Shown: piece after piece, positions 46,464-55,650 of the stretch
Position numbering within the stretch: position 1 is the first letter of the stretch
Layout: every line of letters begins with the position of its first letter
From: Piedraia hortae CBS 480.64
Lineage: Eukaryota
Length of the DNA stretch: 64,000 bases
Direction of reading: 5' to 3'
NCBI GenBank assembly: GCA_010093745.1
Contig: MU005977.1
Span: 186,116 to 250,115, forward strand
Translations under genes and position numbers: made by a program
Notes under the pieces: generated by a model
Seen by the model: the letters and a program-made list of their open reading frames with translations, nothing else
Databases searched by the model: none
What the model was told of the DNA's origin: nothing

Positions 46464-47124
46464 TTGGCTCTAGATCTACAGTCGCTTAGACCAACGCGAT
46501 GCTAGGGTTGCAAGCTTAGGGTTTGCATCTGGCTTGGCCGGCTGACGATGTGGTTCAGGAACAGCATCATATCATATACCATTGACACAAAGTGAGACGG
46601 TTGAGCCACATACTTGCCAGACGCTGCTTCAAACAGAAAGCCATGCTTGTACTTGGCTGTCATTCTAAGAATAGCTGCCTCGTAACTCTTTCTAAACCAG
46701 CTCGTTGCGGCCGGCGGAAACTCTCTCAGTCAGGTCGATGCAGCCAGTAAAAACTTCCCATTATCAACCCCTCATTGCCATCAAGCCACTCGGACATGAG
46801 CCACAAGAGGAAGTCAATCATACTACCATCGCCGTCTAGCAAATGCAATAGATGAGTGAGGCGCATCGACCGAGGTTGCGCTGCACGTGAGCGGGCCGGA
46901 CCGACAGTGATCCTCGGGGGTAAGACGTTCGCTCCACGAGGCTCTTTCCACCTTTGGTGATCTTAACATCTCGTCCAATCTTGCCCACCACGACGACTTA
47001 TATTGGCCCTGCTGCCTCCTTCCGCTCCCTAGGGCCTTTACGCCCCTTTGCGTTTGTTTCGAAGGCTCCCCTTGTGCCCCTTACCTCGCCCCCTTCCACT
47101 TCGCCCGCGCGCCAGGCTTCCAAG

Positions 47125-48392
47125 ATGAGCGACGAGAAAAAGCGCGACGACGATGCAGTCATCGAAGTCCCCAGCCGACGTCCCTCTCCGTCTCCCGCCA
47201 TGTCCGGCCATGGCTCTGCAGCTGTTAGCAGCGTGGCCAATAGCCCTTTTATCAGTATTCTGGCCTACTGTGGCAGCAGCATTCTCATGACCACGACCAA
47301 CAAATACGTTGTCAGTGGAACGCATTTCAATCTCAACTTTTTCCTACTGGCCGTACAGGTATGTGCTTTGGCTACCGGTTGCGGTTCTCTGACGTTTCTA
47401 GTCTATTGTTTGCATCCTTGCTATTCAGACGGGCAAGTCGCTTGGTGTCATTTCATTTCGTGACTTCAATTCTGACGAAGCACGCAAATGGTTCCCAATT
47501 ACCCTCTTGTTGATCGGCATGATCTACACTTCTACCAAGGCTCTCCAATTTTTGTCTATTCCCGTCTACACTATCTTCAAGAATTTAACCATTATCCTTA
47601 TCGCCTATGGCGAGGTTCTCTGGTTTGGCGGCTCAGTTACACCCATGGCCCTGCTTAGCTTTGGGCTCATGGTCCTGAGTTCCGTGATTGCGGCCTGGGC
47701 TGACATCCAACACGCACTGGCCTCGTACGGCGGTGGAGATGGTGGGCTCGGCGGTGTAAGCGGCGAAGCGGCCGAGAAAATCAGTACTCTGAACGCTGGC
47801 TACATGTGGATGATGATCAACTGCTTCTGTTCGGCCAGCTACGTTCTCGGCATGCGTAAGCGCATCAAACTGACCAACTTTAAAGATTTTGACAGTAAGT
47901 ATGCTCGTCCTAGCCTGGCAAAAATTGACGGCTGCAGCCATGTTCTATAACAATCTACTCTCTATCCCTGTTCTTCTGGCTTGCTCAATTTTGTTGGAGA
48001 ATTGGTCTTCGACCAATCTGCTGCTCAACTTCCCCCAAGAGACGCGCAACTTCATGATCAGCTCCATGATCATCTCTGGCCTCTCAAGCATCTTCATCAG
48101 CTACACTTCTGCATGGTGCGTACGTGTTACGTCGTCGACGACCTACTCCATGGTCGGCGCTTTAAACAAGCTGCCCATAGCCATTTCAGGCTTGGTGTTC
48201 TTTGACGCCCCTGTAACAGTTGGAAGCGTCAGCGCCATCTTCGTAGGCTTCATCAGCGGTCTCGTCTACGCCGTAGCGAAGATGTGGCAAGGCAAAGGCA
48301 AAGGCGGCGGTGTGCGGGAACAGGGCAGCAGTTCCATTCTGCCCACGACCAGCGCCAGTGTGCAAAGCATGAGGGATTCCTTGAAGTCATGA
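47125..48392 (+). CDS. VRG4: Golgi GDP-mannose transporter; introns 47359-47401 and 47895-47937
   Basis: [70 protein letters not shown] (GALNK motif). Confidence 0.96.
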
Positions 48393-48519
48393 AGTCGTTA
48401 GACCGGTGGCACCGGAGTTTGTTCACGGAAATTGAATGCGTGTAGATTAGCTTCATTTGCATAAGAAATATACTCAAAAGTGCATGGGTAATTGATTTTT
48501 TTAACTAAAAATGATCAAA

Positions 48520-49974
48520 TCAGTGATCGAAAGACCTAGCATGGAGCCTCGCATGTCGTCGTGCAAGCATGGGGCTTGAGCCCACCGTCATGATGGTTCC
48601 GAATCCTCCCGCTGTCGAAGAGGGCGTAGCCAAAGTGGAGGCTGCCGATGAGAGGACAGACACCACCGTCGAAGTCGAACTCTCCATTGTCGATGAAGCC
48701 GTGAGGTCGACATATTGCGTTTCAACCTGCGTGATGGTGAAGGTCACGACGTCCAGGCCTTGAGCTTGCAGATCCGCCGATGCTGACGTTACCTGATTAG
48801 AGGTAGATGAGGCGGTCGCAGACTCGGAGGATGCGATAGATGATGACGCCGTAGTCGCTGCCGCGATCTTTTCCGCTGCAGAAAAAACCCGAAGTTGTTG
48901 GGTAGCGTCCCAGGTCAGATACTGCAGCTCCTGGTCCATCTGCTTCGCCTTTTGATATGCCGCGGGACTGAAATCCTTGAGCGGAGCGCAGGTGGGAACG
49001 GGCGCCGGAGTGCGCGCGCCGCCAGGCGGACATGCGTCCATGCTTCCCGTCGGCGTTGGCATTCCTATGTATTGCGTCTTGTCGCCTTGGATGCGGACAA
49101 CCGGCGGCGAGAGCGTGTAGGCTCCGCGGCTCTTGTACTCCTTGACAGCGTCCGTCTGGCCGTTCTCCTGCGTCAATCTCTTGCCCTTTCCCGGACCCGG
49201 GTCGGACGTGACGATTTCAAAATCCGCACACGTTGTGTAGTACTCGTCCTTGCCGTGTGGATAAATGCAGTCCATGCCGGGGTTTGTGGGCCACTGCCAG
49301 ATCCAGTACGTCGTCAGCTTTCCCGCCGGCTGGGATGTTGGGATCTGCACGTTAGATTCGCACCACTGCTCAATGTGCGATTGCGGCTGGCCGGGGACGT
49401 GGTTGGGGTACAACACCTGGCGCGTGAGAGAAATGTTTCCACAATTCATCTCGTAACACCGTCCGTCGTCAAAGTTTTGGGCAGCCAGCAGGAAGCCTTT
49501 GCCGTTGCCGCCGGATCCGTCGGCCGTCCATTCCAACACGTCCACCATTTTGTCGTCTTCTGACGGCTGTGTTGTGCCATACACGAATACCGTCCCGCCC
49601 GCCTTGGGCTTGCCGGCTTGGCTCCATGGAAGGCTGACGTGCCCATTCTCAAGATACTTCAGAGCTACCCAGCTGCCGGGTTGAACCTGGAGCATCGGGT
49701 AGTCTGGGTTAGTGTAGTTTGAGGTACGTTGAGCAGGGTGACAGACATGATCAGATGAGCTGAGACGGATGCGTGCGGATTCATCAGAGGGAATCTGGTA
49801 GCTCATCGAGAATCCATTGAAGGTGCTGTCGGTTCGGGCAACATAACCCCGTGAAAAGCCCCGGCTGCCGGTGTAGCTTCCGTTGGGGCCAATGACCTGG
49901 TACTCTTCTACCCACGAGTGGGATTGAGCTAGACCTGCTAGGACAGAGGCCAGGAGAAGCGTGCGTGCAAACAT
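48520..49974 (-). CDS. Secreted protein with mature N-terminal His (LPMO-like or copper-binding candidate) and Ser/Thr-rich tail
   Basis: Signal peptide MFARTLLLASVLAGLAQS followed by HSWVE; YLENGH; TYWIWQWP; EYYTTCADF; multiple Cys; ends ARRHARLHARSFDH*. Confidence 0.85.
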   Translation of the reverse strand: MFARTLLLASVLAGLAQSHSWVEEYQVIGPNGSYTGSRGFSRGYVARTDSTFNGFSMSYQIPSDESARIRLSSSDHVCHPAQRTSNYTNPDYPMLQVQPGSWVALKYLENGHVSLPWSQAGKPKAGGTVFVYGTTQPSEDDKMVDVLEWTADGSGGNGKGFLLAAQNFDDGRCYEMNCGNISLTRQVLYPNHVPGQPQSHIEQWCESNVQIPTSQPAGKLTTYWIWQWPTNPGMDCIYPHGKDEYYTTCADFEIVTSDPGPGKGKRLTQENGQTDAVKEYKSRGAYTLSPPVVRIQGDKTQYIGMPTPTGSMDACPPGGARTPAPVPTCAPLKDFSPAAYQKAKQMDQELQYLTWDATQQLRVFSAAEKIAAATTASSSIASSESATASSTSNQVTSASADLQAQGLDVVTFTITQVETQYVDLTASSTMESSTSTVVSVLSSAASTLATPSSTAGGFGTIMTVGSSPMLARRHARLHARSFDH

Positions 49975-51637
49975 CGTTGCTGTAAGGTTGGTTGCTGAAA
50001 GATAATGGAATCTTGGTTCTGCTTGAGTGGGTATCGAGTCGAGAGTGAGCGAGAAGAAAATGCTGAAAGCCGTAGGAGAGTAATGTAGAGGTGCAAATAG
50101 GACCAGCCCTGGCAAAATAGGTATATAGCAGGAGACTCCTCTCAACGAAGTGAACGGTGGATATCCAGTGAAGCGAATGACAGAGATTCAGAGCGAGAGA
50201 ATAACGTTAACCTGAGAGGGAGGAAGCAAGAAAGGAAAGAGGAGGGCAGTGAATATACCTTACACCAACCATGCCCTCCTAACAGGTTTTCGCTGCCAGT
50301 GAACAGTTTAGCTTGTGGAAACCACATGGCGGCAGCAGTCAGAAGCATCTACTTCACTTGATAGGCCGGGAAGGCAGCATGTTAACTCCGCACGCGCGAC
50401 ATGCACCTCTTACTGGGGGATGAGGTTTCACACCACGGGCCGTTTCGGAACGGCGCGCTCTAGAGTCAGTTTGATTGGTCACATGCCCTAGCACCCGTTA
50501 ACCCCGGCCTGTCACTGGGCGCTAAACGTCGATTATTTTCTCCGGCCGGATGAGCGCTTGTCGTGCAATGGCGCGCGCTTGCATGCGGTTCCAAAGATAA
50601 CCTTGGCTAGATCATTCTCAAGGGATTAGCTAAGAATAGATGCGAGGGAACTTCACTCTTTTCCTTCCCTGGACACGCCCATCTACAAGATTCCACGAGT
50701 AAGTACTGCACTTATCAAGGCTTGTACCAGCCAAAGACCTCGTCACATTTCTCGACTACAACATTGATGTAATCCATCCAAATATCGACGTATGTTTGTT
50801 GTTCATTTTATGTCTCTATTCCATAGTTCATCACACCTCCTACCAAGCTTGTGTTCAGACCCTATTGGGCATTCGAAGGCGCAGCTAACAATGGCTGTCC
50901 TGATGGCCCGTTTCGACATGCAAGATGTATTCTGGCAGTAATGCAGGCGATGGACGCCGCAAGTGACTAGCTACAAACTTGCTTGACCCTGCCAGGCCTT
51001 TTGATTCAAGAAGCCTAGCATTCCGGAAACTAACTGTGGGGAGATGCGTCAAGGCTTTTGACGCAATTTCTGGCCATTTGCCTCTTGAAGAACATACCCA
51101 GACCGAGGAAAAGGTTCTTTGCAGCAAGTTCCTCGCCCAGGCTCCCAATTTTTCTTCGTCCATTCAACTGACTACTGGCCAGCAATTCTTGCAGCAGCTG
51201 ACTTTGATCAGATCCTGCTGTAGAAAAGGCATGGGAACCGCGCGGGGAATTTCGAGTTATGCTATCGATCCGCAGAGCGCTTTCGACCATTGCATTGGTT
51301 TCGACTTTGTTCATAGAGCCTCGGATATTTGTCGGCTTGTTCCATCGTCTGGGTGGCAACAGAAGTTCCATGGCGCCACCAGGTGCTTTGGCTCAATTGC
51401 GTGCCTGTTTCCTTCATGAAATTAGCAAACAGGACAAGACCTGTTCTTCTTTGGCGCTGATGAGGATAGGCAGAACACGGCGCAACAGCACCCAACCGGT
51501 CCGGGGGTATGCCTCCAACGAAGGAACAAGCGTCAAAACCTACTCAGCGTGTTCCTCCTTCCACCTCATTTTCCTCCTCCACTCATGTTTCTCTATCTTA
51601 CTTAAGGGTTCCCCCCTTGTTTTTACTCTCTCGTGTA

Positions 51638-51669
51638 CCTATCTATACTCCCTATCTATACTCCCTATC
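51638..51669. repeat. 13-bp tandem repeat (CCTATCTATACTC) x ~2.5
   Basis: Read directly. Confidence 0.8.
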
Positions 51670-52183
51670 ATCTCCATCATTCTTCCTCTCTCCTGAACCC
51701 GTTCCAGCAGCCGCCTGTCACTATTCACTCTGGTCTCCCTCTTGTTTCCCAAGCATTCAGCCGCAAAACCAATGCAAAATATCTAATGCTGAACTACAAT
51801 TCCCGGAAAGCCCGAGCAGGTTCATGTCGAAAGGTCTGAGCATGATGCATCCTCTTGAATCAACTCGTGCGAGCAGGAAAGAATTCAACAACAAATAAAA
51901 CTTTGATAAACGATTGCCTACTCCAACAGGGTTGCCAGAAACCCAAATCTTTGATATATTTCAAGCAACCCTTTCAAAAAGGCTACTGATTAGACAGTAA
52001 TTTATTTGTGAACTTTTCCCTATGATAAACGACATCTACATACAATGAGGAAGCCTGAGATCAAGTATTCTAAGCAAGTATGTGTGCGCAAAAGTATAAC
52101 CCGCCCACTTGAACAAGGAACAAATCTTCAAAGAAAAAATCATCCGATTCATGAACAATGAACATCTCGCAGAAGTGTTCCAT

Positions 52184-52190
52184 AAAAAAA
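52184..52190 (-). terminator. Pol III terminator (T7) of tRNA-Leu
   Basis: A7 on the plus strand, 7 nt downstream of the tRNA 3' end. Confidence 0.8.
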
Positions 52191-52197
52191 GCCAGAC

Positions 52198-52321
52198 TGA
52201 CGAGGGTGGGACTCGAACCCACGAGGATTGCTCCACTAGTAATATGATGTAATTACGGTGAGGATAATTCCTTAGCGTAGTTTACCTGAAACTAGCGCCA
52301 TAACCACTCGGCCACCTCGCC
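52198..52321 (-). tRNA. tRNA-Leu (anticodon CAG) with a 43-nt intron (52242-52284)
   Basis: GGCGAGG/CCTCGTC acceptor with A73; TGGCCGAGTGG A box; CTAGT-TTCAGG[intron]T-ACTAG; long variable arm GGA-GCAA-TCC; GTGGG-TTCGAGT-CCCAC. Confidence 0.95.
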
Positions 52322-55300
52322 CTTCATATCACTCAAATAGTGAGGATCAAAATATATAAATAAGGCAAACAGAGATTTTATACGGTCGTGGACATGACTG
52401 ATATGGCCTTGGCGCATAATCATCAAGTATGTTAAACTGAGATGTTTGAGAGCAGGAATGAGCTCCGTCCGTTTGTTCGTGCTGGTTTCGCTCCTCCCCT
52501 TCCCCCTTTACCGCCCGGAAAGGAGTGATTGATTGATATTCCAGAATTTTGTAATCATCTCTGTGCGTACGGGTTAGAAATTTTGGCTGGATTCAATGTT
52601 ATTGGTATTGGACGGACAATGATAACATCGTAAACAAGAAAGCATACCATGTATTTCGCTGCGGGAATTCCTTTTGGCCCTCTGTATGAGTATCGTAGGA
52701 GGAAGTCGTCTCTAGACTCGTATTATATATTTTGTGGTAGAATGGTGACAAATTAAACGATGAAAACTTGAAGAGACATTGCGAGCTAGCACGATGCGAA
52801 TCATTCAGAGTTGGCTATGTTTCCTTTTTGGCAGGAAGCAAACAATTCCCTCCTTTACTCTGCCTTTGGGCAATGGATAACTTAGAAGATGGGCTTATCC
52901 ATTTCTAGGCACCAATTTCTATATGCTCTGTGTGAGCCAACAACTTTGTTCTATGGCTGATGAATGAACATCATTCTAGATTCCTGAATATGGTTTACCG
53001 CTCGTCAATTGCTGTGGAACCTCTTACCTTCTGACAGCCCATGAAATAATTTTAAGAGGACGAAAGAATGACTATCGGTGGATCTAGCAGCTCAACATAG
53101 TCTCTGTTCTCCTCTGTCACTCGGCAGTCAGTTACGGATTGTCTGCGTTTGGAAACGTCTAGCCGGTGATTCACCTTGAAAGCGGGATTAGCGACGCGCA
53201 GAGCTGTACATCAACCAGCTCCCTCCATCCGAATCTATGACGTTCTTCCAAACCATTGGAGAAGCATTTGTTAATCTACAGGAATTTCCGCGTGGCATTT
53301 TGCCCAACCCAGTCTCTCCATCAAAGGATCAAGGCCAGCCTTCCCATTTTGGGATCGGGTGTGGAGCAGACGGCGATTGTGGCGAACACAAACTTTTTAG
53401 AAAGCCTAATTCCACCCGACATCTTGGCGACTGACTCGTGCATTGTAAGTGACCATATCGGTCTGAGGTACCGTGACAGATCAGCCAACTTTTTTTTGAA
53501 CAATGTGGCGAATGGGCATGCTCGACTGAAATGAATCAGGAACAATCCACTGAGGTCGTTGGGTGTCACGGAACCATATCGCAGCCACGTGACCCGGCAC
53601 CTCACCTCCAGCCCATAGCGTAGTTAACTCTTCCGTAAGGCACAACACAGTTATAAGGATAGCATAGTCCGCGATGTGATATTGGGAACATGGGGGCGGG
53701 ACCTCCTTGGTACTTTTGAACAATACCGTGTGTTAAGATCTACAACTCTACAAGCCGGCAGGAGTGCAGTCAAAGAATGTGGGCTAGGCTCTGGATTTCT
53801 CTTTTTAGGCCTGAGCTCGAAGATTGGAGTAGCTGTTCAAGGGCAAAGCTTTGATGTTTGTGCACAGAAATGCTCCTGCCGAACGAGGTTGCTATGAAGA
53901 CTTTAGTAGGATTACGCTCGATATTGATAATGCAGCAAACGAGCTGGGGTGGTCATTGATGCTCATCCAAGACTCGTTCGGTTTTACATTCGAGATAAGA
54001 CTCAGGAAGCAACTAAAATAAGTCGGGGAGCGTGTTTCTCGCTGAGCAAGTTGCTGGATAGAAGGACAGAGCAGTGATTAGAATGCTGGGCTGATTTTGC
54101 TATTTATTCGTCACAGTGCACTATTTCCAGACCAACAGGCACCATAGCCAGACCATGGAGTTGCACCAGGGTTGCGGTGAAGAAAGGGAGCGGACCATGC
54201 TGACCCTGAAACCACGTATCCAGATTTCAGAACCAGACACGCCCCAATCATCAACGTTTTCGATACCAGCCAACCAGCAAGCCACCCAACCACGACAGAT
54301 CTGATGAGGCTACAACAAGCCGAAAATTCACCAGCCTTTCTCACAACCGAAAACTCGATAGATCCATTGATCCCCTGCAGCCTGCAAGCTTGGTTTCTCT
54401 GATAAGCACTGCTGAGCCAGTACTAAAGGAGTCGTGAGGCACGCGTTGAGTAAGAGGTGCAGCACGCTGACGCCTCGCGACAATTTCCACAAAATGATGG
54501 TTCTCGTAGACTATTGCGGTTTCTAGTTAACGAAAGGGGCCAGCCACAACCCACATACGTCAGATGAGGCTGACCCGCTGAGCGAGTTTCTAAGAATGCA
54601 TCGCTCAGGAGGGATAACTACCGGTGCATATCTGTGGGTCGTCTGCGCCTCGCAATAATTTGGTGGTGGGGTACTTGATTAAAGCAGTAGGGTGGACGAA
54701 CAGCGGCTCATGTTTGATGTGCAAGTCCCGGCGAACAGGTACGACCGCGAAACAATGAGTGAAGGATCAATTCGCTTCGAGCGAATGCATGTATGCCGCC
54801 ATGATCGATTTTGGACAATTTGTCTAAAGCTCCTCATGTTCACATGTGTCGAGAACTCTGCATATGTATCTTGAGTTGCAAATCTTTCTTCCCTGATCAT
54901 TTATTGAGTTGAGTCTGGACTTCAAACTCATATCGGTAGGGTATCTGACTCTAGAATCAAATCAATAGGGCAACTGACTGCAGAGTGTGAAGTCTGTTGC
55001 CACGCGCCTCCCAACTGCAGACATAGGATCATGCAGTGCGGTCCTACTTAAATCGACCAGGTATTACCAAGTAGCTCAGCAGCCACTCCCGGTTTCTCCG
55101 ATCATCTTTCCATAGCCGTCAGACCCCGGTGAGCCTCGGCTGCATTTGGATGAGCGTTAACACGTCACACTACGCGTCAGCATCAAGATCTTGCAGAACA
55201 TCTATCCAATTAGGCTTTGCGGTGGCACTGATCTCTCATGCAATTAATCGAACATACAAAGAGGCGCGAATGGTTTTTTTCATGGCAACAAACTCTTGCT

Positions 55301-55650
55301 ATGCTCCAGTGTACGCGATGCATGAGGGCAGACCCGACAGACCGGCATTAATTAATAACAAATGACGCTAAGACAGTTAGGAGCAAGGGATTTGTGTTTC
55401 TCGGGGTCTTACATTGAGTAAATCCCCCGACCCAAGCTGCCGGGGCGGCTGCTAAGTAGGGTTCCTACGGGGTCCTCACAGGGTCTTGATTAATGGAGTG
55501 ATGATGACGGAATTGGTGGGGTTTTAATGAGCTTGCCTCGGTTATGTCCCGGCATCGCCCGACGTCGAATAGAATGCCTTGACCGTTGTCAAGTATGAAT
55601 TTTCCATGTGCTATGCCAATCGTCAAAGAATATGTACATCATCTCCTCGT

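Follow-up and report, generated by a model that had tools for sequence, protein, structure and literature searches.

What is the function of a fungal protein that is predicted to be secreted with an N-terminal histidine and that resembles lytic polysaccharide monooxygenases (LPMOs)? This question is raised by a gene in a stretch of 64,000 nucleotides of Piedraia hortae CBS 480.64 (contig MU005977.1, positions 186,116 to 250,115), which is called the window here. The coding sequence (CDS) lies on the minus strand from 49974 to 48520. It comprises 1455 nt from ATG to TGA, the reading frame is complete without an intron, and the single exon encodes a protein of 484 amino acids. A Pfam search gave a single match, DUF7492 (PF24320; E 4e-93), which covers residues 17-259 and profile positions 2-242 of 265. 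Homologues are named 'DUF7492 domain-containing protein' in UniRef, and the CDS product is a full member. DUF7492 is an uncharacterised family found across filamentous ascomycetes. The sequence-only reading of this locus proposed a protein of DUF type, as yet uncharacterised, whose histidine brace resembles that of LPMOs, and this proposal is borne out: the protein belongs to DUF7492, has a predicted LPMO fold, keeps His1, His94 and Tyr228 (such residue names count from the mature N-terminus), and matches no characterised auxiliary activity (AA) family by sequence. Judged from models and alignments, the DUF7492 protein is LPMO-like by all the tests run and is in none of the AA families tested.

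Does the mature protein start with histidine? A predicted signal peptide of 18 residues (49921 to 49974, minus strand) was assigned from the sequence, the -1 residues of homologues and a family-trained matrix. It ends in A-Q-S, and the next residue, His19 or mature His1, is encoded by CAC at 49920-49918, directly after MFARTLLLASVLAGLAQS, just as described from the letters alone. The residue at -1 to His1 is Ala, Gly, Ser or Cys in 128 of 130 homologues. Cleavage at AQS/H has the best score of 13 sites (13.0), followed by VLA/G (10.5) and GLA/Q (6.4); this test is partly circular because the matrix was trained on 117 homologue signal peptides. His1 (49918 to 49920, minus strand) would be the first ligand of a histidine brace, as suggested by its conservation and by the starts of the structural alignments.

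Conservation was analysed in an alignment of 131 diverse homologues and in a larger set of 556 proteins, of which 541 have a near-full domain and 506 are distinct; the larger set includes strain variants, so its members are not independent. An unconserved His1 had been named in the sequence-only reading as a finding that would count against it. His1 is present in 131/131 diverse homologues and in 492 of the 506 distinct domains, where the other 14 have gaps and none has a substitution. His94 is likewise found in 131/131. The observation is confirmed as lying far beyond chance, with 311.9 bits for PF24320 against a cut-off of 27 and both histidines in every diverse homologue. His94 belongs to the motif E91-N92-G93-H94 (49639 to 49650, minus strand; His94 codon 49641-49639) and is the proposed second brace ligand, given its conservation and its position between strands. 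Asn92, Gly93 and His94 are each conserved in 506/506 distinct domains and E91 in 502/506, and no histidine other than His1 and His94 is conserved in this set. E91, D151 and D152 are conserved acidic residues. The pair W206-x-W208 (49297 to 49305, minus strand) is kept in 503/506 (Trp206) and 505/506 (Trp208). The motif E226-x-Y228-x-x-C231 (49228 to 49245, minus strand; Glu226 codon 49245-49243, Tyr228 codon 49239-49237) would supply a second-sphere Glu and an axial Tyr. Tyr228 is found in 130/131 diverse homologues and in 501/506 distinct domains, with Phe in four; at position 226, 115 of the diverse homologues have Glu and 16 have Gln, and among the 506 the counts are 462 for Glu and 41 for Gln. 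Four cysteines (60, 155, 187 and 231) are conserved in 497-506 of the distinct domains. The strings YLENGH, TYWIWQWP and EYYTTCADF and the end RRHARLHARSFDH, which had been pointed out earlier, are all in place. A member from Paramyrothecium has Gly and Phe at the positions of Glu226 and Tyr228.

This conservation bears on the idea that the protein is a structural wall glycoprotein with an LPMO fold and no functional metal site. Such a protein would fit the long Ser/Thr tail, and brace-less LPMO homologues exist, including an AA11-type gene of the host genome that has neither histidine. Nevertheless, His1 and His94 are never substituted in the 506 distinct domains, and the only His1 substitution among the host copies of DUF7492 sits in a copy with stop codons. 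We therefore regard a purely structural role as highly improbable.

The predicted fold is that of an LPMO. The beta-sandwich core comprises mature residues 1-240, with Cys 60, 155, 187 and 231 (49201 to 49920, minus strand), as indicated by AlphaFold, fold searches and conservation. The AlphaFold model of the domain has a predicted local distance difference test score (pLDDT) of 95.7 and a predicted template modelling score of 0.92. A Foldseek search with this model gave 26 matches at E<=0.001, and every listed match was an LPMO; in a fold search against 48,161 representative chains, ranks 1-22 were all LPMO-fold proteins. The top matches were AA15 (5msz; Z 10.2, root-mean-square deviation (rmsd) 3.5, 160 residues aligned) and AA9 (Z 10.1), followed by AA11 (Z 9.8, rmsd 2.9, 137 aligned), AA10 (Z 9.6), AA13 (Z 8.4), X325 (6ibh, Z 8.4) and AA16 (Z 7.9); AA14 (Z 7.3) came below the first unrelated chain. 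A second comparison gave a best Z of 11.0 with CvAA9A (5nlt, rmsd 3.7, 156 aligned). The structural alignments to LPMO chains begin at model residue 1, which is His1. We assigned the LPMO fold because a single superfamily fills the upper end of the list and because the alignments start at His1. A fold that is not immunoglobulin-like would have counted against the sequence-only reading; the model has an immunoglobulin-like beta-sandwich of LPMO type. The domain is about equally distant from AA9, AA10, AA11, AA13, AA15, AA16 and X325 (identity 8-19%, Z 8-11). For comparison, two AA11 proteins that are 75% identical give Z 31.5 against each other (PMC12186267). AA17 is absent by name among the fold matches, and a Phytophthora 'Oxidoreductase B' scored Z 6.8, which is evidence neither way.

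How would copper be held in this fold? His94 lies between strands 84-89 and 110-116 of the model, and LPMOs carry a second histidine at the equivalent strand position. The axial residue was examined by its register with reference LPMOs. Tyr228 is in register with Tyr168 of MtPMO9E, which is the axial residue (PMC11725913), with Tyr166 of NcAA9C (PMC10472438), and with Tyr141 of AfAA11B and Phe185 of ScAA10C (PMC12186267), so the axial Tyr/Phe register holds for 4/4 reference LPMOs with published numbering. Glu226 is in register with NcAA9C Gln164 and AfAA11B Glu139 (same sources). The motif N/Q/E-x-F/Y, described as covering the second-sphere and axial residues of LPMOs (PMC6950343), is present and conserved as E226-x-Y228. 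Furthermore, both W-x-W and E-x-Y-x-x-C have direct counterparts in alignments to AA11 genes from the host genome (hhalign probability 60-73), and the alignments over the last two strands have E-values of 3e-5 to 8e-5, which come from single comparisons of only 42-47 columns. In AfAA11B, W129 and W131 are near copper (PMC12186267). Taken with the conservation and the model, the DUF7492 protein very probably has a histidine-brace copper site.

The pair of Tyr and Glu is the arrangement of chitin-active AA11 (PMC12186267), and it is also tied to high oxidase activity (PMC10472438; for AfAA11B, PMC12186267). This raises the possibility of a copper oxidase whose main product at the wall is H2O2, to be used by other oxidative enzymes or in cross-linking, and which cleaves no glycan. 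AA16 proteins are oxidoreductases that boost AA9 LPMOs, according to the title of PMC10088020, and insertions near the site of the DUF7492 protein may hinder polymer binding. However, AA9 partners were undetected in the host genome, in searches that do not establish their absence, and AfAA11B combines high oxidase activity with glycan cleavage (PMC12186267). An oxidase of this kind seems to us quite improbable.

To which LPMO family does the protein belong? A search of the PDB with the single domain sequence gave seven matches at E<=10, none of them an LPMO, and a search with the DUF7492 profile at the same threshold gave 12 matches, all to the low-complexity tail and none to an LPMO. In contrast, a control profile of five AA11-type genes of the same genome finds three AA11 sequences in the PDB at E 1e-41 to 1e-49. 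Membership in AA11 was thus rejected, as the DUF7492 profile matches no AA11 chain at E<=10 and the control does; an AA11 query of the same genome also found none of the DUF7492 loci. The likeness to AA11 is structural: AoAA11 (4MAI), AfAA11A (7P3U) and AfAA11B (9EXJ) give Z 9.1-9.9 (4mai with rmsd 2.9 Å over 137 residues at 18% identity), and the axial Tyr and Glu (Y228/E226), W-x-W and E-x-Y-x-x-C are shared. Unlike AA11, the DUF7492 protein has ENGH and a 14-residue insertion where AA11 has H-G-G-G, and a 10-residue insertion before Glu, and it lacks the Asn of N-C-A/N-C-[IV]. AA9 was rejected because the protein does not match PF03443; among 84 diverse DUF7492 members scanned with Pfam, four match below the cut-off (best E 2.8e-4). 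The protein resembles AA9 (CvAA9A, NcAA9C, MtPMO9E) in fold, in the register of the axial Tyr, in the N-terminal beta-hairpin and in an X283 tail, and Cys60 and Cys231 are placed like a conserved AA9 disulfide, Cys59/Cys176 of CoAA9A (PMC10990093), but it has Glu in place of Gln and an identity of only 9-19%.

The remaining families gave similar results. AA10, AA15 and AA16 (PF03067) were rejected, since LPMO_10 was found in 2 of the 84 members at about 16 bits against a cut-off of 23, and AA14 was rejected with no match to PF22810 at E<=0.1 in the 84 and a low fold score. For AA13, AA17 and AA18, the sequence comparison was that with the PDB chains, in which no LPMO matched. AA15, AA10, AA13, AA16 and AA14 all show the same beta-sandwich with His1 aligned, at 8-16% identity. 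None of the 84 members matches the Egh16-like/TrsA family (PF11327), which is another fungal family with His1 and an LPMO fold that was proposed as new; TrsA has Phe at the axial position, and DUF7492 has Tyr (PMC12377627). By these comparisons, DUF7492 lies outside the CAZy families with solved structures.

X325/Bim1 (DUF6595, PF20238) is a further family, whose histidine brace is inactive. Membership was rejected, with no match in the 84 members and a probability of only 0.7 for alignment of the DUF7492 profile to X325 of the same genome. Like X325/Bim1, the DUF7492 protein has an LPMO fold and is predicted to be secreted with His1 at its start; unlike it, the domain is much larger, Glu or Gln is kept at the position two before Tyr, and most members have no end of the glycosylphosphatidylinositol (GPI) type. 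Could DUF7492 nevertheless be a non-catalytic extracellular copper-binding protein that delivers copper to uptake systems or buffers it, as X325/Bim1 does? X325 is among the fold matches (6ibh, rmsd 3.4, 134 aligned), its inactive brace is documented (PMC10952591, PMC13353379, PMC7924993), and His-rich tails can bind copper, as reported for an AA14 tail (bioRxiv 2025.11.04.686606). On the other hand, Glu or Gln two residues before Tyr is retained in 503/506 distinct domains, and X325 uses Asp as an additional, fourth copper ligand and is GPI-anchored (PMC13353379), whereas GPI-like ends occur in only 4 of 331 homologues surveyed (those with a tail of at least 60 residues). The failure of the DUF7492 profile to align to X325 of the same genome also speaks against a carrier. 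One of the two host X325 genes adjoins a ferric reductase, whereas no reductase is found among the 23 open reading frames (ORFs) that recur next to DUF7492 in 46 stretches (45 metagenome loci of at least 6 kb and this window); one cation-efflux family, at four loci, is among the 23. We consider a copper carrier quite unlikely.

What, then, might the protein do? We favour a secreted mono-copper enzyme (peroxygenase) of the LPMO superfamily whose targets would be glycans in the wall or extracellular matrix of the fungus itself, either chitin/chito-oligomers or beta-glucan, and we give this explanation as a whole about an even chance. That the protein is redox-active on a glycan seems to us probable. 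In the proposed mechanism, signal peptidase would cut after Ser18 and free the His1 amine, a step strongly supported by conservation. His1 (NH2 and ring N) and His94 would hold Cu in a histidine brace, and the model would place Tyr228 as the axial residue. By analogy with AA9 and AA11 chemistry, a reductant would prime Cu(II) to Cu(I), and H2O2 or O2 would then be activated; Glu226 would position or confine the peroxide, a glycosidic C-H would be hydroxylated, and the chain would break. W206, W208 and Y228 could form a protective hole-hopping path as in those families. The enzyme may be retained at the wall by its Ser/Thr tail, which probably carries O-glycans, together with the basic X283 end. 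The general LPMO scheme behind these steps is outlined in PMC10952591 and PMC12186267.

The choice of the fungus's own wall or matrix as substrate is the weakest link, and here we see the scales as level. We propose it because DUF7492 persists whatever the lifestyle of the fungus and without carbohydrate-binding modules (CBMs), and because it shares Tyr and Glu with chitin-active AA11 and is kept alongside AA11 in the host genome. The PIR repeat of one member and the GPI-like ends of four homologues point the same way. An LPMO for an outside substrate, be it a polysaccharide of plant walls or some different polymer from the host or the environment, is a reading that we hold to be unlikely. DUF7492 is present even in obligate biotrophs and lichens, which are poor in plant-wall enzymes; CBM families were found in none of the 84 diverse members; and 462/506 distinct domains have Glu, not the Gln of AA9. 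An outside substrate would agree with the best single Z, which belongs to an AA9, with the weak AA9 matches of four members, with the X283 tails of AA9s for plant penetration (PMC10990093), and with the expansion of DUF7492 to seven host loci, which suggests a niche role.

Several further points weigh against the favoured enzyme on wall or matrix glycans. The first non-LPMO chain in the fold search, NIS1, has Z 7.8, a small margin below the LPMOs, and the usual best Z of unmatched models is 7-8, just below the 8-11 seen here. The register test used only alignment end points, with 11 residues counted back on a gap-free assumption. The convergence of His94 with His1 is deduced from topology and conservation, not from a residue-level alignment of His94. 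The invariant E-N-G-H, the 14-residue insertion after His94 and the 10-residue insertion before Glu226 are peculiar to DUF7492 and have no counterpart in the aligned AA11s, and these features could block a flat substrate face. As shown by X325, which has a histidine brace and is inactive (PMC13353379, PMC7924993, PMC12186267), the brace alone is no predictor of polysaccharide oxidation, and the substrate is unreadable from the fold. No CAZyme is among the 23 recurrent neighbour ORFs, of which 11 have a Pfam match and 12 do not.

A bolder reading, which we find doubtful, is that DUF7492 would be a separate catalytic LPMO family of filamentous ascomycetes. Its copper environment would be distinctive, with the invariant Glu-Asn-Gly-His, Glu-x-Tyr and large loops surrounding the site, and it would oxidise a polymer of the fungal wall or matrix that is not attacked by any known LPMO. 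Beta-1,3/1,6-glucan, alpha-glucan, and melanin-linked or extracellular glycan might be tentatively put forward as candidates. If this were true, the expansion to seven loci, in a small genome where AA9 went undetected, would mean a lineage dependent on that chemistry. Every new LPMO family so far has come with a substrate or biological role of its own, and how LPMOs take part in the remodelling of fungal walls is still debated ground. Another DUF with an LPMO fold would be no surprise to specialists; what the active-site map does is make DUF7492 directly testable. The family is large and occurs in tractable fungi, and its single-exon domain makes cloning and testing easy.

Has the family been noticed before? 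The terms 'DUF7492' and PF24320 and member gene identifiers were unmentioned in the literature searched, and topic searches gave no paper on the family; this search lay outside most subscription journals. At Eurotiales loci, DUF7492 is located between genes for HMG-CoA reductase and SH3/epsin/RasGAP proteins. We take An07g08280 and An07g08220 to be these neighbours in Aspergillus niger. From this synteny, An07g08250 would be the A. niger DUF7492 orthologue, which we think rather likely. An07g08250 is the A. niger representative of 'LPMO16', described as a putative group of highly divergent fungal LPMOs whose predicted structure resembles AA9 and which is placed near AA16, AA14 and AA11 in a profile tree (Voshol 2017, PMC5320794; Voshol 2019, PMC6950343). 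DUF7492 may thus be the putative 'LPMO16' group. However, 'LPMO16' is said there to hold 6% oomycete and 4% metazoan sequences, whereas the named DUF7492 matches listed are all from ascomycetes save one contaminated metagenome-assembled genome (MAG) and two records labelled with a host plant. The identifier An07g08250 is not in four supplements of Voshol 2017 (PMC5320794), no A. niger member is among 30 DUF7492 clusters looked up, and the passages on 'LPMO16' in the text of Voshol 2017/2019 give no motif, structure or activity. The novelty claimed by the sequence-only reading therefore stands in that no characterised family is matched by sequence, but the family already has a Pfam number and may have been flagged in 2017/2019.

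How widespread is DUF7492? Searches gave 801 proteins among 1,159 candidates and 553 clusters at 50% identity, and a profile search gave 1,816 proteins among 8,000 candidates; named members come from the best 120-150 matches of each search. Among the matches listed, the closest named homologues are Dothideomycetes (identity up to 67-68%), and the named members belong to what we take to be Dothideomycetes, Eurotiomycetes, lichen fungi, Leotiomycetes including powdery mildews, and a few Sordariomycetes. The family is also present in black yeasts, Aspergillus and Pseudogymnoascus as well as in powdery mildews and lichens, and tractable fungi with members include A. oryzae, A. fumigatus (AFUA_2G03690), Aureobasidium and Z. 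tritici (MYCGRDRAFT_33309). In the reference A. fumigatus Af293 model of AFUA_2G03690 (307 aa), the start is placed at an internal Met, and signal peptide and His1 are missing; both are present in the 371-aa form of other strains. This truncated model may be one reason why His1-based screens missed DUF7492. The domain is encoded on one exon in 47/48 loci. Among prokaryote genomes (GTDB) there is one locus, NYXK01000223.1, in a MAG labelled Deltaproteobacteria; a prokaryotic origin was rejected in favour of fungal contamination, as the protein shares 92% identity with one from Cadophora. Two records that carry the label Quercus suber are probably contamination of the same kind. None of 55 pattern matches in viral contigs was confirmed as DUF7492. 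Beyond the family, matches in the ESM Atlas scored only 0.79-0.85, to clusters with an LPMO label or with none, and are leads only. A PIR repeat was found in 1 of the 84 diverse members.

The region behind the core is composite. A segment at mature 249-272 (49105 to 49176, minus strand) extends the catalytic domain at its C-terminal side and is conserved and ordered, as recognised by pLDDT (88-95 over 251-270), by conservation (A258 in 132/142 and P272 in 119/142 rows) and by its alignment with the C-terminal part of AA9 and AA11 domains. It is followed by a clade-restricted module with Cys297, Cys311 and a helix at mature 319-335 (48916 to 49032, minus strand). The pLDDT of this module is 90-92 over 311-330, and the two cysteines are found in 60 and 59 of 142 rows, which are the closest homologues. 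A disordered tail rich in Ser, Thr and Ala then occupies 48565 to 48900 (minus strand); 57 of the 100 residues at 371-470 are S, T or A. The Ser/Thr-rich tail that had been predicted thus exists, but it does not begin directly after the last strand: in the full-length model, order extends to about mature residue 335, and pLDDT is mostly below 50 only over 341-463. Disordered tails are typical of LPMOs (PMC8615602).

The basic, His-rich end of the protein contains two tandem motifs of X283 type, RRHAR and RLHAR (48535 to 48561, minus strand), which fit the consensus RXHAR. The resemblance of RRHAR to fungal AA9 C-termini, noted from the sequence alone, corresponds to the 'RXHAR' motif of AA9 tails that CAZy calls X283 (PMC10990093). 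In the tail survey, H[APS]R occurs within the last 25 residues of 77/331 homologues and in mid-tail windows of 0/331. CoAA9A has a dimer-forming Cys just before X283 (PMC10990093), whereas the protein here has none, with no Cys after residue 329. Its C-terminus is basic, not hydrophobic, so that no GPI-type end is seen. The four GPI-like ends, which a hydropathy screen picked out as hydrophobic, all belong to Botryosphaeriales-type proteins.

The host genome (16.9 Mb searched, 132 contigs) has seven PF24320 loci, on contigs C15 (one), C83 (two), C21 (one) and C2 (three). These seven form one clade among 352 domains (FastTree support 0.969), which indicates that the expansion is lineage-specific. 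Three copies are full-length, namely the CDS here, one on C15 and one on C83. Two copies match the C83 copy without a difference over 830 bases and end early, and the C83 pair is inverted and about 17 kb apart; the identical copies could be assembly duplicates. Two other copies carry stops, and one of these has His1 changed to Tyr. Repeat-induced point mutation was rejected as the cause of the two decayed copies, because transversions make up 37/113 and 45/130 changes and there is no CpA bias. One copy is interrupted right behind the catalytic core by about 125 inserted bases (L006:2266-2390), flanked by repeated AGAAC; the insert resembles a small mobile element that has duplicated 5 bases of its target.

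Besides DUF7492, the host genome has five AA11-type loci and two X325 loci. AA9, AA14, LPMO_10 and Egh16 were undetected in it, in searches of which three of four matched no control genome, so that absence is not shown. Four AA11-type genes have His1 (L011, L014-L016); the L011 protein ends in a His/Arg-rich tail, and three related AA11-type genes have a long insertion containing Cys. The C9 AA11-type gene (L013:1486-2013, minus strand; about 700 codons) has Asn for His1, no second His and Asp for Glu, and is, as read from its sequence, a brace-less LPMO homologue. The C25 X325/BIM1-like gene (L009:1186-3346) is divergently paired with a ferric reductase whose ORF starts with a Met/Asp-rich segment, and the two are likely a copper-uptake pair.

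The window itself is fungal, and its long ORFs encode housekeeping eukaryotic proteins (HSF, ORC6 and others, by Pfam). There is no functional gene cluster around the CDS in the window, where the neighbours are housekeeping genes, and across the 46 stretches no neighbour of DUF7492 is common beyond a lineage. One public run, which is only guessed to be RNA, has contigs that span 48482-50177 with no joints listed; this run alone gives a hint of transcription of the CDS, its depth is unsuited to ranking genes, and 50262-50600 is without cover. A stretch of about 5 kb upstream of the CDS (50200-55600) has only short ORFs, three of which were scanned and had no Pfam match; given how compact the genome is, this is a long stretch of intergenic or regulatory DNA. 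Downstream, a convergent neighbour (46900-48511, plus strand) consists of ORF pieces with no Pfam match, and by its motifs it is probably a nucleotide-sugar (GDP-mannose) transporter. The run contig of this neighbour has poly(A) at 48511, with 19 A's that are absent from the window. This poly(A) site is 9 bases from the stop codon of the CDS, so that the 3' ends of the two genes overlap.

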